Origin: a virus
Lineage: Duplodnaviria > Caudoviricetes
Reading direction: 5' to 3' (one strand)
DNA length: 32,516 bases
IMG/VR virus record: IMGVR_UViG_3300005077_000562
Location: 1 to 32,516 of that record
Part shown: positions 2,198 through 31,282 of the stretch, in pieces
Position numbering within the stretch: the first letter of the stretch is position 1
Layout: each line of letters begins with the position of its first letter
Translations under genes and position numbers: made by a program
Notes under the pieces: generated by a model
Told to the model about the DNA's origin: nothing
Databases searched by the model: none
What the model saw: the letters and a program-made list of their open reading frames with translations, nothing else

Positions 2198-2395
2198 AGA
2201 TACTTCATCAAGAACCTGACGTAACTGATTTTCAAGCAATACTGCCATGTTACTTACTTCATGTTCTTGAGCTAAACCATCTAACAATCCAGTTGGTTCC
2301 CATTTCTTAACCAAACCTCTTGTTTGTTCAAGAACTAATTCTTGAACATTTTTCCCCTCACGAAGTTTATGTAAATTAAACAAATTTTTACCCAT
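2198..2395 (-). CDS. N-terminal ~65 aa of a T4 gp23-like major capsid protein, truncated by the junction
   Basis: LVKKWEPTGLLDGL...MAVLLENQ is the gp23-type N-terminal motif; follows the scaffold gene; GGAG RBS; AT-rich codons. Confidence 0.8.
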
Positions 2396-3780: not shown

Positions 3781-3993
3781 TTAATCATTATTTTTTAACA
3801 TTTTCCATCTTTGTCTGGCAATAGCCTTATTTTTTTTATCTTTTCTTTTAGCTGAAGGTTTTATATAATATGATTTTTCATATAAGTCTATCATTAAATT
3901 ACTATCTTTTACTATTTGTTTAAAAATTCTTAATGCTTTATCTAAATTTCCATTATTTACTTCTACATATAAGCCTTTTAATTCTTGTGACAT
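3781..3993 (-). CDS. rpsU: Phage-encoded ribosomal protein bS21
   Basis: VEVNNGNLDKALRIFK...YYIKPSAKRKDKKNKAIAR fits the bS21 pattern; 70 aa, basic; GAGG RBS. Confidence 0.88.
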   Translation of the reverse strand: MSQELKGLYVEVNNGNLDKALRIFKQIVKDSNLMIDLYEKSYYIKPSAKRKDKKNKAIARQRWKMLKNND

Positions 3994-8834: not shown

Positions 8835-9422
8835 CTATTTATTATTTAATAATATTTCCATTATTATTTCATTAATTCTATCATATTTTGTATTTTTATT
8901 TACATTTTCATATAATTTATTCATAAATGCTCCATGAACACTTGGATTACTTACACAATCCCAACATATTAATTCATAATCATCTTGAACTTCATCTCCA
9001 TTTGTTGATTCTCTAATAGAACCAAGTCCTCTTGATGAAACTCCAATTTTTACATCAGATTTTAATAACTCTCGCAATATATTTCCTGACGGAGTATTTA
9101 AAACTTCCAAACTACCCACTAAATCATTACCTTTCCAATGTGCTTCAGTAATAACATGACTAACATTTGATAAATTTATAATACTGGAATCTGGATGATC
9201 TAATTCTCCTAATGATCGTCTTTCTTTAATTAATTGCATATATTTATTTATTTCTCGTTCCAAGATATTTTTTGAATATACTCTTCCATTTTGATTTTTA
9301 GTATTAGCACGTTGCAATACTCCTTGAATAATAACTTTACCATTATTTTTTTCAATAGATTCATTTATTATTTGTGGATTAACTTCTAAAGGTATATAAT
9401 CTACTAATAATCGTTTATTCAT
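8835..9422 (-). CDS. Prohead core protease (T4 gp21-like)
   Basis: NQNGRVY, LGELDHP (catalytic His), TPSGNI, GVSSRGLGS (catalytic Ser), D.VSNPS. Confidence 0.93.
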   Translation of the reverse strand: MNKRLLVDYIPLEVNPQIINESIEKNNGKVIIQGVLQRANTKNQNGRVYSKNILEREINKYMQLIKERRSLGELDHPDSSIINLSNVSHVITEAHWKGNDLVGSLEVLNTPSGNILRELLKSDVKIGVSSRGLGSIRESTNGDEVQDDYELICWDCVSNPSVHGAFMNKLYENVNKNTKYDRINEIIMEILLNNK

Positions 9423-19385: not shown

Positions 19386-21053
19386 TTATTTTTTTGTTTC
19401 TATTGATTTTTTAACAATTGGCTCTAATACAATATTAACTTTATCTTGTATAATACTATTTTTTTTATCATATCCAAGTATCCAATCAATTACATCATAA
19501 CCAGATTGAGTTGCTACTTTTTCTATAAAGTTTTGATATTTTCTAAGTATATCTCCTTTTTTTAATCTTAATCCAGTATTTCCAAATGATACATTACCAA
19601 AAGAAATCTCTTTTTGATAATCAGTTTTATAATTATAATCCGAATATTGATCTTTATTTCCAGTAATATAGTCTAATATATCCCATGCAGGAAGTGTTTT
19701 TAATATTTTCATAATTTGTGTTTTATAATTATTTATATTTTTATAAAAAATATCTTGTCCATCATCAATATCATTTCCAGTAATACTATTTTCACTTAAT
19801 TGTATTCTTTTATTTAATTTACTATCAAATAAATTATATATATCAGTATTTAAATTTTTATATAAATTAATAAAATATTTGGTTTTAAATTGATCATCAT
19901 CTGTTTTAAAATTATTTCGTATTTCTGTTGAATTTATATCATTTTCTACTGGAATTATATAAATATAACAACATTCATTAGCTTTTTTTAATTCTAAATT
20001 ATCAACATATTCTTTATAATATCCACCATTAAAATCAAATCTATCTTTATCTTTAGAACTTATTGCTATAATTAATGAAAATGTATCCAAATTTCCAAAA
20101 TATTGATATTCATTTTTTCTATACGGAAATTTCATATGTATTATATTTTCATCTGAAACATTAAATAATGTATTTATTATATTTTTTTTATCTTTAAAAT
20201 TAAATGGACATTCTGGATATTTTACTTTATTTGAAGTAACAATATATACATTTTTTTTAAATTTATTTATTAAATGATTATATATATAATAATGTCCAGA
20301 ATGAAATGGTTGAAATCTTCCAGCAAAAGATACAATTATATTAGAATCAGATAAATTTTCTATATTTTTTGAGAAAATATATAATGCTTGCCATTTTAAT
20401 AAATTTACTTTAATTATTGGAATTTTATATGAATCTCCATATAATTCTTTAATTGCTAACCATCTATGATGACCATCCAATATAAATCCATCTTTTGATA
20501 CAAATATATAACTAAAATTTATTTTATTATTTTTTATATCTGATTTCATATTTTCAACTTTTTTTGGTATATATTTATCTTGTATTGCTTTTAATTTTGA
20601 ACATGTTGTAACTCCTTTTTCATATCCAATTCCATATTCATCAAATAACTGTAATATATCATCAACCTGATCTTTTTTTATTTGAGGCATATCTTTTTGA
20701 TAAATACTTTCATTTAAAAATTTAACAATAACATAATGATCTGGAAGTGTTTCATAACCTTTAGCAATTATACCATCATATCCTTTATTTTTAATATATT
20801 CAGTTAATTTTTTAGATGATATACTTCGTTCAAAAGAATTTCCTGTTAAAGTTTTAAATTTATTTATTAATTTAACTGCTTGTTCTTTATTCATAATTAA
20901 TGGATTTTTTAAATCCAATACTCCCTTTTTTATTGTTCCATATTGTTTAGCATAATGAATATCAGTTGTCCAATATTCACCAATACCCAAATCTCCAGAA
21001 TCAGATGGATTTTTTGAAATTCCACGATATATTTTTAAATTTTTATTTAACAT
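19386..21053 (-). CDS. Multi-domain protein: ART-like, ParB/Srx-like, HIGH nucleotidyltransferase (NMNAT/NadM-like), unknown C-terminal domain
   Basis: IYRG...LGIGEYWTTD..YAKQY...LKNPL...GYDGII; IFVSKDGFILDGHHRWLA; GRFQPFHSGH and INSTEIR. Confidence 0.7.
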   Translation of the reverse strand: MLNKNLKIYRGISKNPSDSGDLGIGEYWTTDIHYAKQYGTIKKGVLDLKNPLIMNKEQAVKLINKFKTLTGNSFERSISSKKLTEYIKNKGYDGIIAKGYETLPDHYVIVKFLNESIYQKDMPQIKKDQVDDILQLFDEYGIGYEKGVTTCSKLKAIQDKYIPKKVENMKSDIKNNKINFSYIFVSKDGFILDGHHRWLAIKELYGDSYKIPIIKVNLLKWQALYIFSKNIENLSDSNIIVSFAGRFQPFHSGHYYIYNHLINKFKKNVYIVTSNKVKYPECPFNFKDKKNIINTLFNVSDENIIHMKFPYRKNEYQYFGNLDTFSLIIAISSKDKDRFDFNGGYYKEYVDNLELKKANECCYIYIIPVENDINSTEIRNNFKTDDDQFKTKYFINLYKNLNTDIYNLFDSKLNKRIQLSENSITGNDIDDGQDIFYKNINNYKTQIMKILKTLPAWDILDYITGNKDQYSDYNYKTDYQKEISFGNVSFGNTGLRLKKGDILRKYQNFIEKVATQSGYDVIDWILGYDKKNSIIQDKVNIVLEPIVKKSIETKK

Positions 21054-21236
21054 TTATTTAAAATTCTTTTTTAACATAAATACAACAATATTTGAATTTT
21101 GTGTTGTACAAGTTTCAACTTTATATCCATCATTTATATAATTTAATAAATCTTGCGTTACTACTCGTACATCACTACCAGTTATAGCAACCATTAATGT
21201 ATTACTCAATGATCCAGATACTCCTATTATACTCAT
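21054..21236 (-). CDS. Small hypothetical protein (VSGS/ITGS motifs)
   Basis: Coupled to both neighbours; GGAG RBS. Confidence 0.55.
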   Translation of the reverse strand: MSIIGVSGSLSNTLMVAITGSDVRVVTQDLLNYINDGYKVETCTTQNSNIVVFMLKKNFK

Positions 21237-22084
21237 TTATACTTCTCCATTTTTCGTTTTATAAAAAATTTATCATCTGAAATTAATTTCCATTCTCCAT
21301 CCGTTGGTGACATAGATTTTCTTTTCCAATGAAAATGAATTAATCTATCAACCAATCCATTTTTATTATTTCCATTATCCATATAAACATTAAATGCTTT
21401 TTCTATTTTTTTAATATAACTTCGTACAGCAATTTCTCCAATTCCTCTACCTTGTGTCTCTCTTCTCCATTTATCTCTTTCAATAGCTAAATCTATATCT
21501 ATATCTAAATATATAATAGTATTAGTATATTCATTATTTCTTGATTTTTGAAAAAAATCAAATATATGATTATAATTAGCTCCAGTAGAATCTATAATTA
21601 TAATATTTCCAGCATGTATTATTTTTTCTGAAAATAAATCATATGAAATTTGTTTTGCATAATCTCTAAAATCAAAAAATGTCGAATAATAAGATTTATA
21701 AAAAGTAATATAATAATTTTTTATACCAATATCTTTATTTAATATCCACCATTCATATGTTAATGGTATTTTTACATTTTTTCCATCATTATTAATATAT
21801 GCAGAATCTTTAATAAAAGAATTAATATCAGATTCATCTTTAACATTCGATAATAACCAATTATAATGTTTTATTGCAAGCTTATATTGTGATGCCATTA
21901 CTTGATTATCCGAATTTGATATTTTAAATGATTTGGCATTTGGAATATATTTTTTTATATCATTCTTAATAAAAGTGCTTTTTCCAGATGCAGGAAGCCC
22001 CATTAACAATATACATTGTTTTTTTAAATCTTCTTTAAATTCTAATATAACTTCATTTATTACAGTTTTTATATTAAGATTCAT
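21233..22084 (-). CDS. P-loop kinase (AAA_33/zeta-toxin/PNK-like)
   Basis: Walker A GLPASGKST, IIIDSTG, lid RDKWR. Confidence 0.75.
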   Translation of the reverse strand: MNLNIKTVINEVILEFKEDLKKQCILLMGLPASGKSTFIKNDIKKYIPNAKSFKISNSDNQVMASQYKLAIKHYNWLLSNVKDESDINSFIKDSAYINNDGKNVKIPLTYEWWILNKDIGIKNYYITFYKSYYSTFFDFRDYAKQISYDLFSEKIIHAGNIIIIDSTGANYNHIFDFFQKSRNNEYTNTIIYLDIDIDLAIERDKWRRETQGRGIGEIAVRSYIKKIEKAFNVYMDNGNNKNGLVDRLIHFHWKRKSMSPTDGEWKLISDDKFFIKRKMEKYK

Positions 22085-22634
22085 TTATATTCTCCATAGA
22101 TTCAAATCTTTTAATATTTTGTTTTGTATTTTTTATTTTATATCGATATATCCATCTTGCATCAGAATATTCAGTTTCATATTCAATTCCAAATTTATTA
22201 AGTTCCTTATCTAATATTTCATTTATTTTAGTAATATTACTAAATAGCGTATATACTCCAATACCATATGAAGAAGGATATACATGAACTCCAGATTTGA
22301 ATCCTAAATTAATTAAAAATTTTTCTAAATATTTACCCATTCTTTTATAAAAATTATTTGATTTATGTTTAGAAATTATTTTATTTATTATATAATCAAA
22401 TGTTATTTTCTTTTTTTGTGGTAATAATATTTCATAAGAAAATTTCCAATTTTCAACTTCACTATCATACTTTTCTCTTGCTAATACCATTACAGAAGCA
22501 TTTTCTATATCAGTTGTATCATATAAATCATTAGAATTTTTATATAAATGAACTATCCATCCATCTTCTTTTAATTTATCAATTAATCCACTTTCAAATT
22601 TTGATTCAAATAATATTTTTTGTAACTTAACCAT
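22074..22634 (-). CDS. Putative internal head protein (MVKLQKILFE)
   Basis: Leader motif; AGGA RBS. Confidence 0.6.
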   Translation of the reverse strand: MVKLQKILFESKFESGLIDKLKEDGWIVHLYKNSNDLYDTTDIENASVMVLAREKYDSEVENWKFSYEILLPQKKKITFDYIINKIISKHKSNNFYKRMGKYLEKFLINLGFKSGVHVYPSSYGIGVYTLFSNITKINEILDKELNKFGIEYETEYSDARWIYRYKIKNTKQNIKRFESMENINES

Positions 22635-23217
22635 ATATAAATTCCTTTACTAATGTATATTTAATATTAAATACACTTAATAATATTTGCATTTCTTTTA
22701 AACATTCAAGTCTCGATCCACCACATAAATAACTACCAGACCAAGTTTTTAATTTATTAATTTTAATATCTGGTAAATAAATTGATGAATATTCAATATC
22801 AATTTTATGCATTATGTCTGGAAAATATTCCATCCATTTTTCTTCTGGTATTTCATCAGAAGAATTAGCTTTATTTAATAACATAAATCTAATAACTTGT
22901 TTCATAGTACCATCATCAATTCCCATATCCATCCAATCTCTAAAAAATGCATATCCTTTATCAATCCATATTATTTCATTAAATTTATCTTCATTTAATC
23001 CATATTCATATAAAAAATCAGATATACTATATTTTGTATCTGTTCCAACAGTTTCAGTACCATTATAAAAATATAATATTTTATTTTGATTATTTAAAAA
23101 ATTACAAAAATTATACAAACTAAAATCAATAAATTTTTCATAATCTGGCTGAACATCAACAACAATCACATTATTTTTTCTTTTTTCTGTTAATAATATT
23201 TCTTTTAACTTAATCAT
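22627..23217 (-). CDS. Isochorismatase/nicotinamidase-like cysteine hydrolase with leader MIKLKEILLTE
   Basis: Asp-Lys-Cys triad pattern: VIVVDVQ, IDKGYAFF, LCGGSRLECL. Confidence 0.6.
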   Translation of the reverse strand: MIKLKEILLTEKRKNNVIVVDVQPDYEKFIDFSLYNFCNFLNNQNKILYFYNGTETVGTDTKYSISDFLYEYGLNEDKFNEIIWIDKGYAFFRDWMDMGIDDGTMKQVIRFMLLNKANSSDEIPEEKWMEYFPDIMHKIDIEYSSIYLPDIKINKLKTWSGSYLCGGSRLECLKEMQILLSVFNIKYTLVKEFIYG

Positions 23218-24650
23218 ATCGTTTTTTCATATTCTTTTTTAATTATATTTAATGCTTCTTCTTTACTTAATTTAGGATTTTCAAAATAAGCATCCTTTAC
23301 TTGATTTAAAAGATGTTTAATTATATATCCTGGTTTTATATTTAAATATGTCATAATATCATTTCCATTTATAGGTAAAATTGGTTTTGAAGATTCATCT
23401 TTCATTTGATTTAATTTATCTCTTAATTTTGGTATCTGATTAGGCATACTAAATTCATCTGAATGTGATATATTATCAGCATGAATTAATTGCAATGTAG
23501 TTTCTAAATGATCTCCCAAATCATTTTTTAATTTTCTTATTGTTTTATCTGATACAATTTCAGATTCATTTCCAAATTGTTTTGTTCTCATATGATTTTT
23601 TATAGCAATTATTACTTTATTTATTATTTCATTCGGATATTTTAATCGAATCATTATACGTTTAGCTATATCTGATGATATCTTTTCATGAGTATAAAAA
23701 GTAATTTCATTATTTATAATTTGTTGTGTTTCATATTTACCTATATCATGAAATAATGCCGCAAGTCTAATTTCTAATTCAGGAGGTACTTTTTTCAAAA
23801 CATCTAATGTATGTACCATTGCATCATATTTATGGTATTTATTCTGTTGTAATTTTATTAAATTATCCAACTCAACAGCTACAAATTTATTTAATCCTGT
23901 TAATTGTAATAATCTAATAGCTATATCAGGATTTTTAGAAATTAACATTTTATTTAATTCATCTCTCACTCTTTCTGCGCTTATAGTTTTAAGCATATGA
24001 GCATTTCTTTTTAATGCCCTTATCATAAATAATGGTAATTTCCATCCATATTTTACAGTAAATCTTATTGCTCGTAACATTCTTAATGGATCATCAGTAA
24101 AAATAATATCTGGATTAAGTGGAGTTCTAACTATACCATCTTTTATATCTTTTTTACCCATTCCAGTTAAATCGAGTATTTCACCAGTAGTTAAATCTTT
24201 CAATAATGAATTTACTGTAAAATCTCGACGAGTTACATCATCATATAACGTTCCTGCACTAACTTCAGGTTTTCTATTACCATATTGATATTTTTCTTTT
24301 CTTGTCATTACAACTTCAATTTTAATATCAGATAAATTATATCCTTTATATTGTATTCCTTTTAATACAAATGATGCAGTACCATAAGTTGGATATATTA
24401 CAGGATTTGATCCATTTTTATATATGTTTAATTTTTTTGTTATCCAATCCGCAAATTTAATACCACCATTATCCATTTCAACAACAATATCTATATCTTT
24501 TGGATCAAGTCCAAGTAATTCATCTCTAACATATCCTCCAGCAATATATGCTTTACCTTTAAATGGAGAATTTTTTACTAAATTAGATATAAATTCTACT
24601 GCAATTTGTTCTAATATTCCTTCTTTTATTAATTGTTTAAGTTTTATCAT
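23214..24650 (-). CDS. cca: Class II tRNA nucleotidyltransferase (CCA-adding/poly(A) polymerase family) with HD domain; leader MIKLKQLIKE
   Basis: AGGYVRD.LLG..PKDIDI, DVTRRDFTVNS, DDPLRMLRAIRF, ISAERVRDEL, HT...LAALFHDIGK. Confidence 0.9.
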   Translation of the reverse strand: MIKLKQLIKEGILEQIAVEFISNLVKNSPFKGKAYIAGGYVRDELLGLDPKDIDIVVEMDNGGIKFADWITKKLNIYKNGSNPVIYPTYGTASFVLKGIQYKGYNLSDIKIEVVMTRKEKYQYGNRKPEVSAGTLYDDVTRRDFTVNSLLKDLTTGEILDLTGMGKKDIKDGIVRTPLNPDIIFTDDPLRMLRAIRFTVKYGWKLPLFMIRALKRNAHMLKTISAERVRDELNKMLISKNPDIAIRLLQLTGLNKFVAVELDNLIKLQQNKYHKYDAMVHTLDVLKKVPPELEIRLAALFHDIGKYETQQIINNEITFYTHEKISSDIAKRIMIRLKYPNEIINKVIIAIKNHMRTKQFGNESEIVSDKTIRKLKNDLGDHLETTLQLIHADNISHSDEFSMPNQIPKLRDKLNQMKDESSKPILPINGNDIMTYLNIKPGYIIKHLLNQVKDAYFENPKLSKEEALNIIKKEYEKTI

Positions 24651-26243
24651 TTATATTGTATCAATTCCTTCTACTTTTTCTGGATATTTCAATTTAAATA
24701 CTTTTTTTGCCACATATATAATAATATCTTTAATAGTTTTTAATTTTAATTTTTTCATATCATAAAGAAAATTATATATATCATCTCTATATAATTTATC
24801 TGTTTTATAATTATGAATTTCATTTTCAATGCCAATCATTATATCTCTTAATCTATATTCACTATAAGAATAACTTATTAAATTAATTAATTCTTTTGAA
24901 TATTCTTTAGCATCATTTGACAATTCATTATAATTTTTACAATTTAAAATTTCATGTATTAATAAAATTTTTAAATTAAATTTAATAGGCAAATAATCAG
25001 ATGTTTGTTCTTTATTATCATATTTTATACTAACATCATTAAATTTTAAATATGCTTTATTTTTATTTAATACTTTAAATGCAGATTCATCATTATAATA
25101 ATATATATGTTCAAACGATGTATCAATAAAATTTAATATATTTTTATATCGTAAACGAAATTCATTATTAATTGGAATATAAATATGAATTTCTAATATA
25201 TATTTTTTAAAATTATCTATATATGGTTTATCAGAAATTATTCTATCTTCATTTTCATTATTTTTTAACATACGATCTATTTCATATGATTTAAATCCTG
25301 ACCAATAATTAACCGAAATAGCTTTAAAATTATTATTTAATTTTTTTCCATCTAATACCAATATTACCATTGAACCATTTTTATGAAAATTTGATCGGGT
25401 AAATCCTCCAAATTTTATTCTACTTGTAGATAAATAATAAAATTTTTTTCTATTCATATCAAAATCACTCAATGTACCAATTGCAATACTCATTTTAAAT
25501 TTATTATCTTTTAATATATCATGTAAATGATCTATACTTGTAGTATGATATACAATAGAATTTAATGATTCTAATAATAATGGTTTTAATTTTATTAATC
25601 CATCACCTAAACCCTTTCTCATTCTAAATCTTGTTATGACAGGAGGTTCTCCTTTTATAGCTCCAGAAACTCTCTTTCTTGAACCTACCCCATATGGTAC
25701 TTCTTTTTTTTGTTTTAATAGTGGAGATATTATATGAGGAACATTAAATTTCAATTGTTTTTCACTTTTTATATATTTATTAATAGGAATAATTTCAATT
25801 TTATATTCTGAATCAGATGTTATTTCTTCATCCCAATAAATATTATCAGGATTAATAATGTTATCATTCTTAACCACAACTTCAATATTAAATTTATTCC
25901 AAATATCTATTTTTAATTCATTTTCAAGATCATTAACAATTTTTTTTAATTTAATTTTTGTTGGATAAACCCAAAAAGATATTAATTTTTTATTAATCCA
26001 CAATCTTCCAGGATATTGAAATTCTTTTCTTCCCAAATTATGATATATATTTTTTTTGGAATCTTTTGTTATATACATTTGATACAAATCAAAATGATTT
26101 TTTGGTGATGATAATATATATAATTTATCAGATATATAACCAAATACATATGTATCGTTATCCATAAAATCAGCTATAATAATTCCATTATTATTAAAAA
26201 CTTTATCTGGATTTTCTTTTAATATATTTTTAAATAAAATCAT
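24651..26243 (-). CDS. Two-domain protein: N-domain paralogous to 29901-30599, C-domain ADP-ribosyltransferase-like
   Basis: Leader MILFKNILKE; internal LIKLKPLLLE; then VYHTT, YLSTSR, ENEDR (H-S-ExE pattern). Confidence 0.6.
   Translation of the reverse strand: MILFKNILKENPDKVFNNNGIIIADFMDNDTYVFGYISDKLYILSSPKNHFDLYQMYITKDSKKNIYHNLGRKEFQYPGRLWINKKLISFWVYPTKIKLKKIVNDLENELKIDIWNKFNIEVVVKNDNIINPDNIYWDEEITSDSEYKIEIIPINKYIKSEKQLKFNVPHIISPLLKQKKEVPYGVGSRKRVSGAIKGEPPVITRFRMRKGLGDGLIKLKPLLLESLNSIVYHTTSIDHLHDILKDNKFKMSIAIGTLSDFDMNRKKFYYLSTSRIKFGGFTRSNFHKNGSMVILVLDGKKLNNNFKAISVNYWSGFKSYEIDRMLKNNENEDRIISDKPYIDNFKKYILEIHIYIPINNEFRLRYKNILNFIDTSFEHIYYYNDESAFKVLNKNKAYLKFNDVSIKYDNKEQTSDYLPIKFNLKILLIHEILNCKNYNELSNDAKEYSKELINLISYSYSEYRLRDIMIGIENEIHNYKTDKLYRDDIYNFLYDMKKLKLKTIKDIIIYVAKKVFKLKYPEKVEGIDTI
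25602..25736. repeat. 135-bp direct repeat, copy 1
   Basis: 7 mismatches against 29982-30116 by manual alignment. Confidence 0.95.
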
Positions 26244-26753: not shown

Positions 26754-26820
26754 ATATTTCTCCAAAATTATTTTATATTAATAAATATATAGTTTTTTTT
26801 ATTTTATTATATAAAATAAA

Positions 26821-26854
26821 AAAGGTTATGATATATTTCATATACCATAACCTT
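26821..26854 (-). terminator. Intrinsic terminator downstream of the Thg1-like gene
   Basis: Inverted repeat aaaggttatg...cataaccttt followed by a T-run on the minus strand. Confidence 0.7.
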
Positions 26855-26881
26855 TAAAAAATACAAGAATATATAAGTTAA

Positions 26882-27619
26882 TTATAAATCATTATTATTA
26901 TCAATTGTTATAAATAATGGAATTAAATTTCTTAAAACTGTACGATCTTTAGTAAAAATAGGAGGATCAGTAATTACCCATTTAAATCTTTTTGACTCAT
27001 CTTTCATATATGATTCTTTAATAATTAATCTTCCACGTTTATATTTAATTGGATAATCATTCCAATTTATTCCTTTATTAAAACATAATTCTTGCATTTG
27101 AGAAACATTTTTATTATTTAATTCTTTATGACTATATAATGATTGAGCAACTGCCGATATACTATTTCTTGTTGCGTCTTGTTGTCTCCATATAAAATAA
27201 TTTTCAACTTCAATACAATTTGGTATAATAAAAACCCTACTATCAAATAATGCAATTTTATTTGGTCGAAGTTGATTAAATTTTGCAGTTGCTAAACTTG
27301 AAGATATACTAACAATTTTTTGTATATTTCCATCAAACCATGCAGTAGTTTTTAGATTATCAAAATCACTTAATAATATTGAAATTTCATCACTTTGAAC
27401 AAATGCTAATTTAGCACCCTGAATATTTTCACATAAATAAATAGCAACATTATTCATATCATCAATTAGTTTATCATCAAATGGTTTATTCAATCCTTTT
27501 GTATATGAATGAAATGCTTTACCATCAATTCTAATTATTGTATATGTACGTTTTGGCAAATAATACCTTGTAATATTTTCATAATTATTTTTTATTCTAT
27601 TACCAATATCATCTTTCAT
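26882..27619 (-). CDS. tRNA(His) guanylyltransferase / Thg1-like 3'-5' polymerase
   Basis: IIRIDGKAFHSYT, QSDEISIL, FDSRVF, YFIWRQQDATRNSI; AGGAG RBS at the 27619 start. Confidence 0.92.
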   Translation of the reverse strand: MKDDIGNRIKNNYENITRYYLPKRTYTIIRIDGKAFHSYTKGLNKPFDDKLIDDMNNVAIYLCENIQGAKLAFVQSDEISILLSDFDNLKTTAWFDGNIQKIVSISSSLATAKFNQLRPNKIALFDSRVFIIPNCIEVENYFIWRQQDATRNSISAVAQSLYSHKELNNKNVSQMQELCFNKGINWNDYPIKYKRGRLIIKESYMKDESKRFKWVITDPPIFTKDRTVLRNLIPLFITIDNNNDL

Positions 27620-27620
27620 A

Positions 27621-28676
27621 TTACTCCTGTTCATTTGCAAGATATAGTGGACTTCTTTGTTTTAAAAATAATCTTCCAGAAAATTTTTCTAATCGTATAT
27701 TTTTTTCAATCATTGGTTTTATAACTATTCCTTCTCTTAAATGAGTTGGATTTAATATTGAAAATCCATTGCTATATTCTTTTAATGTTTTATCTCCTAA
27801 TACATCAATTAATTTAATATTATATGTAATTGTTGGAACATGTTTTAATTTTAATAATTCGATTATATTCATAAAATCAAATACATCTAAAATTTTATTA
27901 TTTATTTCAATATCAAAAAAATAGATATCATGATTTTTAATATTATAAATATTTTTTTGAATATTATTACCTATTATTTCCCCACGTAATGTTATATTTG
28001 AATTTAAATATTTTTCAGATAATTGTACAATTTTATTTAATAAATCTAAGTTTCTGGCTGTTTTCCATAATGTATTAATATTAAATTCTGTTTCAATTAT
28101 ACTATAATTATGACTATTAACATATATTTTTTTATCAGTATTAATTGAAATAGAAAAATTACTTCCTTCTAATTTTTCACTTATCCACACATATTCATTT
28201 AATAAAACATTAAAAATATATGGATAATTTTCAGCATTTTCTATATCATATGATGATATATATGAAGGCAATCTTACTAAATTTCCAGTATTACAAAATA
28301 ATATTGGAGGTTCATATTTAGTAACTCCTAATGAAGATGTTAAATCAATATTTTGTAATTCATTAATATTAATTTTTAAATAATTTGATATTTGTACACA
28401 ACTTGTAATTAATCCTTGAGATATTGAGCCACGTAATTTTACTGTTTTTACTCTATTACGAGATAAAAAATTAGTAACTCCAAGAAAATCACTAAGTTCT
28501 AATGGTAAAATAGAATCAATTGGAAAATATATAACAGTATCACCTTCTTTATATACTCCTTTTGGAATGCAAAATTCATATTCATTATTAATCAATTTTC
28601 CAATTTCTAAACGATCTGCATTTGGATGATTAAAAATTTTATCAATTTTTTCAAATTTTACTTCAAATAATGACAC
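27621..28676 (-). CDS. ATP-dependent RNA ligase, DRB0094 family
   Basis: N-terminal HPNADRLE...YFPIDS...KLRGSISQGL; motif I SEKLEGSN, LRGEIIG, FFDI, EGIVIK. Confidence 0.88.
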   Translation of the reverse strand: MSLFEVKFEKIDKIFNHPNADRLEIGKLINNEYEFCIPKGVYKEGDTVIYFPIDSILPLELSDFLGVTNFLSRNRVKTVKLRGSISQGLITSCVQISNYLKININELQNIDLTSSLGVTKYEPPILFCNTGNLVRLPSYISSYDIENAENYPYIFNVLLNEYVWISEKLEGSNFSISINTDKKIYVNSHNYSIIETEFNINTLWKTARNLDLLNKIVQLSEKYLNSNITLRGEIIGNNIQKNIYNIKNHDIYFFDIEINNKILDVFDFMNIIELLKLKHVPTITYNIKLIDVLGDKTLKEYSNGFSILNPTHLREGIVIKPMIEKNIRLEKFSGRLFLKQRSPLYLANEQE

Positions 28677-29900: not shown

Positions 29901-30599
29901 TTAAAATGATAATTTATGAATTTTTTTTCTTATTCTATTTATATGTTCAAAAATAATATTTTTATTATTATTAATTATTGAATCACCTAAACCCTTTCTC
30001 ATTCTAAATCTTGTTATTACAGGAGGTTCTCCTTTTATAGCTCCAGGAACTCTCTTTCTTGAACCTGCTCCATATGGCACTTCTCTTTTTTGTTTTAATA
30101 ATGGAGATATTATATGTTGTTTATTCATTTCTGTTTCAGAATGTGAATCACTATTATAATATTGATTTATTGGAATATATTTTAATTTTTTATTATCATT
30201 GCTCCAATCTTTTTCTTTAAGTTTTGGATCATATCTTAAATTTGTTTTTTTATCAACAACAATTTCTATTTTCCAAGTATTGTCAAATTTAATTTTGCGT
30301 AATGGACTGCGTGTATTAAGAGAATTTATTATATCATAATTATATTTTTGTTGTATATCTAATAAAATACGTTTTAATTCATTTTTTTTTGGAAATACCC
30401 AAAAAGTTATAATTTTACTTTTAAGAAATAATCTACCATTACATTCTGTATTACTACGTCCCATAATATTTGCATGAGTAGAATTATACCTTCCTATATA
30501 TAATTTATTATCATGATAAGAAAAAGGTACACTTATTTCATCATTCCAGTCTATTTGATTTTTATTATATATAATAGTATCTGGACTTTCATTTATCAT
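29901..30599 (-). CDS. Paralogue of the N-terminal domain of 24651-26243
   Basis: GRLFLKSKIITFWVFP versus GRLWINKKLISFWVYP, plus a near-identical 45-aa block; AGGA RBS. Confidence 0.75.
   Translation of the reverse strand: MINESPDTIIYNKNQIDWNDEISVPFSYHDNKLYIGRYNSTHANIMGRSNTECNGRLFLKSKIITFWVFPKKNELKRILLDIQQKYNYDIINSLNTRSPLRKIKFDNTWKIEIVVDKKTNLRYDPKLKEKDWSNDNKKLKYIPINQYYNSDSHSETEMNKQHIISPLLKQKREVPYGAGSRKRVPGAIKGEPPVITRFRMRKGLGDSIINNNKNIIFEHINRIRKKIHKLSF
29982..30116. repeat. 135-bp direct repeat, copy 2
   Basis: Matches 25602-25736 at an offset of 4380 bp. Confidence 0.95.
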
Positions 30600-30851
30600 A
30601 TATTTATTCCTAATATTTATATTTTATTTATAAATATATATATTTTTATTATTTTTTTATTATTTATTATTTTTTTATTATTTTTTCTTATTTTTGGAGT
30701 TAAAAACTAATAGTTATAATTATTATAGATATATTACCCCTGCCGTTAGCAGATTGAACTAATGAAAATTTAAAAAAGTTCCATGTTTTATAGTAAAAAT
30801 AAAAAAAATTTTAATTCTATTCTATCCTTACAGTGTCAAGGCTTCCAGCTA

Positions 30852-30880
30852 TTGACTTTTTTATTTTTATTTTGTATATT
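30852..30880 (+). promoter_or_regulatory. Sigma70-like promoter TTGACT-N17-TATATT
   Basis: Same hexamers and spacing as 29855-29883; 28 nt upstream of ATG 30908. Confidence 0.6.
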
Positions 30881-30907
30881 ATAATAGTGAGAGAAAGAAA
30901 GGAAAAA

Positions 30908-31282
30908 ATGAAAAATTTAAATAAATATGATATACATAATTTATTTGATGATTTAAGAGATCGGATGCGTAAAATATCAAGATTTAAATATCTTGTATTT
31001 AGGCAAAACAACCAAAATGTGTTTTCATTCATAGTAGATGAATCTATATTTAAAAAAAACATGGATTTTGTTTGCATATGGAAAGACTTCTTCTGGCGAA
31101 GATTATCTGAAAAAGAAGATTGTGTATATGGCAAAGAAGGTATTTCCGAACAAGAAATAAATATGGCAATGGATAATTTTGAAGTTGTTGATATTTATTC
31201 CAAAACAATTTTGCATCGATTGCGTCTTTATTATGAAAATAATAAAACGAAATTAAAAAAATTAGCAGAATTTAAATATTAA
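30908..31282 (+). CDS. Hypothetical protein (probably early)
   Basis: AAGGA RBS and promoter favour ATG 30908 over 30833. Confidence 0.65.
   Translation: MKNLNKYDIHNLFDDLRDRMRKISRFKYLVFRQNNQNVFSFIVDESIFKKNMDFVCIWKDFFWRRLSEKEDCVYGKEGISEQEINMAMDNFEVVDIYSKTILHRLRLYYENNKTKLKKLAEFKY

Follow-up and report, generated by a model that had tools for sequence, protein, structure and literature searches.

A CCA-type tRNA nucleotidyltransferase with a putative capsid-targeting leader in a phage with a T4-type head module

Introduction

Host defences that cut tRNA set a trap for phages, as they also block the making of phage-encoded antidotes. A phage that brought a repair enzyme along in its capsid, if any does, would escape this block on translation. 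The locus described here raises the question of whether a phage has taken that route, because it encodes a tRNA nucleotidyltransferase that begins with what looks like a capsid-targeting sequence (CTS).

Phage CCA enzymes as such are known. They are listed in passages of Al-Shayeb et al. 2020 (PMC7162821) and of the RaK2 paper (PMC3622015), and a passage of Iyer et al. 2021 (PMC7824862) counts them among RNA-repair counter-measures. These jumbo- and huge-phage enzymes (Iyer, Al-Shayeb, RaK2 gp031 and Atu_ph07 gp18) belong to the same class as the one studied here; tRNA maturation or repair against host attack has already been proposed for them in the passages concerned, in which none is described as virion-borne. 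Among the titles and abstract openings of the open-licence literature, none dealt with a CCA enzyme packaged in virions or with such a leader. T4-type CTS cargo is likewise known already, and what is likely new is the combination of the two, with the packaging that it would entail.

The phage and its head module

The window, that is, the whole stretch of DNA analysed, makes up an entire record of 32,516 bases. Beyond about position 2200 the sequence is AT-rich (GC 17–33%) and of phage type, and its minus strand carries a T4-type head module comprising terminase, portal, gp21-type protease and bS21 (Pfam, PHROG); Portal_T4 and Peptidase_S77 are both encoded (Pfam). The closest cultured portals are those of Microcystis phage Mel-JY01 (54%) and Flavobacterium phage immuto (52% identical), and the host is likely a member of the Bacteroidota. 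Immuto, the closest cultured relative tested, belongs to the same head clade and has leader-like N-termini, but no CCA gene. The coordinates of the features discussed below are collected in Table 1.

Window bases 1–2200 look cellular. Within 995–2395, the major capsid gene stops after about 66 codons at a junction near 2198; the truncated piece matches the capsid protein of the related genome G001 as far as DEVS, and past the junction the frame continues into a bacterial-type HATPase_c_4/HTH gene of 48% GC. The junction is most likely an assembly chimera. The bS21 gene (phrog_21469), at 3781–3993, shares the strand of the head genes. Its position among terL, portal, protease and capsid is that of the bS21 Bacteroidetes phages of Chen et al. 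2022 (PMC9723584), but in those phages bS21 is reversed relative to the head genes, and CCA does not occur in the main text of that paper.

Table 1. Features of the window on which the analysis draws
Feature	Position	Strand	Basis
Gene for the 478-aa class II tRNA nucleotidyltransferase of CCA type	23214..24650	-	Pfam, PHROG, NCBIfam, alignment, fold
Catalytic head and neck, residues 34–236	23943..24551	-	motif alignment
HD phosphohydrolase region, residues 280–396	23463..23813	-	Pfam, alignment
Leader MIKLKQLIKE, residues 1–10; predicted CTS, predicted protease cut after E10	24621..24650	-	
Upstream 530-aa ORF, leader and second internal leader copy ending E225	24651..26243	-	
Downstream 196-aa ORF, ATGA overlap, leader variant MIKLKEILLTE	22627..23217	-	
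ATATTTAT, candidate late promoter of the run amidase, 530-aa ORF, CCA gene	26781..26788	-	
Terminator-like hairpin between leaderless Thg1/RNA ligase genes and CCA run	26821..26855	-	
T4 gp21-type prohead protease (Peptidase_S77), predicted leader cutter	8835..9422	-	Pfam, PHROG
Major capsid protein, N-terminal piece; predicted propeptide end LRQVLDE, leader-like motif	2198..2395	-	

A class II enzyme of the CCA type

Pfam places PolyA_pol (residues 34–175), RNA-binding (211–261) and HD (286–358) domains in the 478-aa product, which matches the PHROG family tRNA nucleotidyltransferase with an E value of 2.7e-59. Its top NCBIfam model is the CCA-type TIGR02692 at 228 bits, which is under the 438.8 cut-off; the rival models PcnB and A-adding score 117 and 79, respectively. 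The AlphaFold model has a mean pLDDT of 92, and its best structural matches are solved CCA enzymes (Foldseek E ~1e-15). Domain order, motifs and fold are like those of the bacterial class II CCA enzymes with an HD domain (E. coli Cca and M. tuberculosis Rv3907c), and homologues from Bacteroidota, Cloacimonadota and Armatimonadota have the same catalytic, loop and HD motifs. Among the genome loci fetched, the cellular homologues reach at most 46% identity to the window enzyme and are, with few exceptions, leaderless.

We sorted the enzyme subtype by rules given in part of PMC2910056, where ERxxxExxxhh is assigned to CC- and CCA-adding enzymes and sRxxxExxxhh to A-adding enzymes as well as poly(A) polymerases (PAP). 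Motif A (D52/D54) and motif B (RRD 141–143) are invariant across 35 aligned rows, the basic/acidic motif R117-K-E119 is present, and the flexible loop is undeleted, with a span of 29 that equals both the viral and the cellular median (parsing succeeded for 82 of 83 viral loci and for 79 of 80 cellular ones). The segment ERVRDELNKML (226–236) fits ERxxxExxxhh, and E226, R227 and E231 are invariant in the same 35 rows. Since the basic/acidic motif and the full-length loop are both present, a CC-adding enzyme is excluded, and the presence of ERxxxExxxhh excludes A-adding enzymes and PAP. From its motifs, the gene appears to encode a class II CCA-type enzyme, for which CCA addition is predicted. 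The earlier note had claimed complete class II motifs and an HD domain, and this holds: every CCA signature tested is present except the amino-acid template motif, which reads DDPLR (186–190), i.e., DDxxR where EDxxR is the motif published in part of PMC2532741.

A full CCA-adding activity might be doubted on account of this template, and several homologues bear the name poly(A) polymerase in their source databases. The top PDB sequence match also carries the name 'tRNA nucleotidyltransferase cca2', which we take to be the fission-yeast A-adding enzyme. DDxxR itself, however, occurs in 68 of the 80 cellular loci and in 48 of the 83 viral ones. The upstream motif of PAP is absent from the window enzyme and from all the loci (0/83 viral, 0/80 cellular), while the CCA-type ERxxxExxxhh and a loop of the cellular median span are in place. 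We therefore rate both an A-adding enzyme and a PAP as extremely improbable, the latter being what the note had named as evidence against its own reading.

In the HD region, H280, H301-D302, H321, H353 and D392 are invariant in 35 aligned homologues, and HD-x-G/A-K was found in 120 of 120 sequences. Passages of PMC10673834 report phosphatase activity of the HD domain for the M. tuberculosis enzyme of this kind and cite it for that of E. coli.

A leader shared with other phage proteins

The first ten residues of the enzyme must be translated, as codons 1 and 59 are the only ATG, GTG or TTG among the first 60 codons of the gene and a start at codon 59 would lie behind catalytic motif A. The pattern Phi-x-x-Phi-Phi-x-E, ending within residues 7–30, stands at the head of 16 of the 50 window ORFs (one of the 50, 30833–31282, having been read on the wrong strand), compared with means of 2.6 (maximum 9) and 4.0 (maximum 11) in two sets of 1000 shuffles and with 12 of 249 internal windows. 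Some of these matches, for example at the N-terminus of the terminase, are probably chance amphipathic helices. Among the best 119 homologues of the enzyme, 83 have the leader by a strict pattern and 111 by a loose one; near the same position it is found in 55 (strict) or 66 (loose) of the 83 viral loci, which include near-duplicates. Its enrichment in the window and its conservation in homologues show that the leader is real.

The note had also named a shared N-terminus in cellular homologues as evidence against its reading. These homologues begin about 10 residues later than the leader-bearing proteins, and the leader was found in just 3 or 4 of the 79 cellular loci parsed (80 fetched), an outcome that, like the missing PAP motif, favours the note. 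It occurs in none of the 64 metagenome loci parsed (67 fetched) below 45% identity, the metagenome and genome scans each having covered 3 of 64 parts of their collection. The leader behaves as a detachable unit. It remains N-terminal where 55–60 residues are inserted before the core (P0023, P0036, P0090, P0096 and P0119), or about 90 residues in L021, and an internal copy is retained in the fusions P0007, L035, L037, L043 and L059. Synonymous codons vary at the conserved leader positions, so the constraint acts on the peptide, and an origin of the leader at the nucleotide level, as a translation enhancer, was rejected. In the AlphaFold model, residues 1–9 are the sole unconfident segment (mean pLDDT 40 for residues 1–10 vs 92 for 11–20), and DSSP assigns a single helix spanning residues 5–25. 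Low pLDDT is common at protein termini. The leader is a module that phage proteins of unrelated kinds have in common and that cellular homologues almost entirely lack.

A FastTree phylogeny of 101 dereplicated rows, among them 5 metagenome loci and roughly one third of the cellular ones, and with no test of its root, places the leader-bearing (tagged) enzymes in one clade of 63 rows (SH 96) beside leaderless viral and Cloacimonadota sequences. Most members of the clade missed by the regular expression have degenerate leaders, and L060, L076 and L095 look by eye like true losses. These losses, together with the amphipathic motif in the few cellular loci and at the start of the terminase, would fit a relic or generic helix that plays no part in targeting, on a jumbo-phage CCA enzyme of the ordinary kind whose task is the maturation of phage tRNAs. 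Against this stand the enrichment of the leader over shuffles, its modularity and its conservation in more than 100 homologues. Two tagged relatives, moreover, have at most one tRNA call each, and L076, which adjoins a tRNA array, is leaderless (see below). A relic is thus very unlikely.

None of the best 60 matches in the phage collection is a cultured phage with a CCA enzyme of the tagged clade; the only close record among them is an uncultured 735-kb phage (58%). In the clade of this 735-kb phage a different leader dialect is found on the neighbouring genes and on the enzyme of the related genome G002. Across genomes, the leader of the CCA enzyme matches the dialect of its own genome in 30 of 49 cases (permutation 21/2000), a correspondence that is weak overall. 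L004, L018 and L044 (G002) have this second dialect, of the MIKKFKLFE / MKKYNEFLNE type and nearer to the T4 CTS, which in G002 occurs on 47 of 286 ORFs by a loose pattern as well as on the CCA enzyme. We also noted CCA enzymes with N-terminal extensions of 285–790 residues (L004 17694–21395, L018 8114–11428, L041–L043, L059 and P0112); several have a leader-like motif just ahead of the CCA core and are candidate cleavable polyproteins.

Similarity to capsid-targeting sequences

The T4 CTS is given as MKTYQEFIAE in part of a preprint (bioRxiv 10.1101/2021.01.19.427310). Both it and the window leader have ten residues, with hydrophobic residues at −6, −3 and −2 and Glu at 10, but unlike the T4 YQEFIAE the window leader is rich in Leu and Lys (LKQLIKE). 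In T4, the CTS of IPI–III and Alt is cut by gp21, which according to an excerpt of PMC12991175 cleaves after I/LxE. The window leader likewise ends in Phi-x-E (I8-K9-E10) and fits a propeptide of about 10–20 residues ending in I/L-x-E, and portal and protease of the T4 types are also encoded in this genome. The capsid proteins of the clade contain a similar motif, [AL]-x-Q-Phi-Phi-x-E, at about residue 60–64 and near the T4 gp23 cut position, although the gp23 cut maps about 7 residues ahead of the Glu of the motif. Taken together, these features make it very probable that the leader is a CTS and protease site. Its cargo would be a tRNA nucleotidyltransferase, unlike T4 IPI–III and Alt, and its packaging is here predicted from sequence.

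Virion mass spectrometry of the distant cultured phage Atu_ph07 (table and supplement of PMC6102473, in part) allows a comparison. We called 844 ORFs (714 annotated) and matched 134 of the 140 table rows by mass, with gp199–206 partly mismatched; detection meant two or more peptides, and single-peptide rows were counted as undetected. Of the ORFs with the phage's own leader, 20 of 22 were in the virion vs 90 of 822 others, in a sample that was only PEG-purified and with a pattern picked after gp53–62 had been viewed; the held-out part gave 9 of 11 vs 76 of 764. The strict pattern of the window showed no enrichment in the Atu_ph07 virion list (4/31 vs 106/789, odds ratio 0.95). The CCA enzyme of Atu_ph07, gp18, is leaderless and absent from the virion table. 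In a single cultured phage, and a distant one, leaders of the Atu_ph07 type thus mark proteins of the virion, and by extension the window leader may do the same for the CCA enzyme. A search of the literature by title found no virion data for immuto, Mel-JY01 or RM378. The match to the T4 CTS, the capsid-propeptide motif and the Atu_ph07 enrichment lend packaging indirect support, and we consider it rather likely that the enzyme is present in mature virions.

Gene order and late expression

The CCA gene lies 7.9 kb upstream of terL and shares its strand with the terminase, portal, protease and scaffold genes; in G001 it is 14 kb from terL, also on the same strand. Among relatives, a head gene lies within the fetched flanks of 12 of the 83 viral loci and of 2 of the 33 long ones. 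The earlier note had placed the gene in a late, structural run and called for a survey of the leader together with head-module location. The placement stands in the window, on the strand of the head genes, and is loosely conserved elsewhere; the survey bears out the leader but not the head location.

The motif ATATTTAT, which was picked by eye, occurs on the window minus strand at 30637, 26788, 17182, 11596, 5959, 4137, 4078 and 3735, and is a candidate late promoter. The copy at 26788 stands just past the terminator-like hairpin, and the run that it heads includes the CCA gene and extends on the same strand as far as the head genes. Eight of 18 copies are intergenic, compared with an intergenic share of the region of 4.4%, and the motif precedes 18 of 186 G001 genes, portal included. 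Of 63 distinct viral loci, only 7 have the motif directly upstream of their CCA gene. A sigma-70 promoter scan was uninformative (125 sites vs 148 in shuffles). Judged from this motif and the terminator-like hairpin, the CCA gene would probably be expressed late.

Late expression is also what one would expect if the leader were real, as a protease site or scaffold tag, but the enzyme worked late in the cytoplasm and was not usefully delivered. It would then keep tRNA charged for capsid synthesis, much as bS21, which is in the same run and is reported to be late-expressed (PMC9723584). A few virion copies would, moreover, add little to the CCA enzyme of the host. Hosts do possess a CCA enzyme of their own. 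In Atu_ph07, however, almost all leader-bearing proteins are virion proteins, and passages of PMC5694885 describe the T4 CTS as packaging foreign proteins by itself. The Thg1 and RNA ligase of the window, in addition, have no leader, so the leader is not placed on all RNA enzymes. We consider purely cytoplasmic work of the CCA enzyme unlikely.

Substrate and purpose

No tRNA genes were found within the 32,516-base window, and tRNA calls were made in 9 of 60 loci scanned. G002 (243 kb, rated 100% complete, with a tagged CCA enzyme) has one doubtful tRNA call, and G001 (168 kb, 78% complete, also tagged) has none, whereas the leaderless L076 adjoins a 22-gene tRNA/tmRNA array. Unlike the jumbo- and huge-phage systems, the tagged relatives are often without tRNA genes nearby, and the enzymes of G001 and G002, with zero and one tRNA call, probably act on host tRNA.

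We propose that the leader would target the CCA/HD enzyme into the prohead, that the gp21-type protease would cut after Glu10, and that the mature enzyme would enter the host with the DNA and, early in the infection that follows, mend the 3' ends of host tRNAs. The HD domain would clear 3' or cyclic phosphates before C-C-A addition, judging from the enzymes of E. coli and Mycobacterium. Our best reading of the locus, on balance, is a tRNA 3'-end repair enzyme that is packaged in the capsid and injected; the step in which the enzyme is ejected and acts on host tRNA has, taken by itself, slightly better than even chances. With the leader as a sequence rule, the injected proteome could also be predicted for many large phages that are uncultured.

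What the injected enzyme would be for is a further question. According to part of PMC12851939, Cas12a3 cleaves tRNA tails at 2–4 nt from their end, as far as the discriminator. In passages of PMC13594972, about 45% of its homologues come from gut Bacteroidota and its cleavage of CCA tails is termed irreversible. Cas12a3 is a plausible opponent of the window enzyme, which offers a direct test of whether phages undo tail cleavage by this nuclease. A CCA enzyme is unable to rebuild a lost discriminator base. We infer an anti-defence role from these parallels, and regard the offsetting of tRNA-tail-attacking immunity such as Cas12a3 as possible but doubtful. Revival of dormant hosts, the other role that the note had suggested, would likewise be speculative. 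A bolder picture, less likely than not, is that a wide clade of aquatic phages with T4-type heads (~170–735 kb) tagged the CCA/HD enzyme once and kept it as a virion antidote to tRNA-tail immunity. The enzyme would heal and re-tail cut host tRNAs before any phage protein synthesis, with Cas12a3-like nucleases and acceptor-end toxins as opponents. If so, an enzyme delivered in the particle would reverse a shut-off of translation.

The same delivery step could instead serve upkeep of the tRNA pool in slow-growing or starved hosts, with no part in counter-defence. No defence system was found linked to the CCA enzyme, and HD-type CCA enzymes repair spontaneous end damage according to a passage of PMC10673834. 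That the leader arose at the base of a wide phage clade and was then retained for long suggests strong selection, however, and immunity that cuts tRNA tails does exist in Bacteroidota, as parts of the literature cited above describe. Delivery for upkeep is therefore improbable in our view, more so than purely cytoplasmic work though less so than a relic leader.

Neighbouring genes

The Thg1 and DRB0094-type RNA ligase genes (26882–28676) are adjacent to each other, leaderless and upstream of the terminator-like hairpin, and form a second tRNA-repair pair, probably a cytoplasmic one. A linked tRNA-repair operon was considered and rejected: a Thg1 match is present in 2 of the 83 viral loci and the window RNA ligase in none, both genes lack the leader, and the hairpin separates them from the CCA gene.

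The first module of the upstream 530-aa ORF is fused to a CCA enzyme in the homologue P0007, and 24651–26243 and 29901–30599 share one module in two copies. In the 530-aa ORF, the module is followed by the internal leader and then by a second domain with H-T-T, S-T-S and E-x-E, a pattern that by eye resembles that of ADP-ribosyltransferases. Pfam gave no match for this second domain, and its Atlas neighbours are DUF2971-cluster structures, which fall under the naming bar. The downstream 196-aa ORF belongs to a phage-specific family with only a weak isochorismatase lead. Two genes downstream of the CCA gene, 21233–22084 encodes a leader-bearing P-loop kinase with weak Zeta/PNK matches; L005–L007 have a homologue of it no more than 2 kb from their CCA gene. 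The 555-aa protein at 19386–21053 has an N-terminal ART-PolyVal-like piece (E 2e-5, under the cut-off), a middle domain and a HIGH-type nucleotidyltransferase; in several relatives, homologues of this protein are encoded close to the CCA gene.
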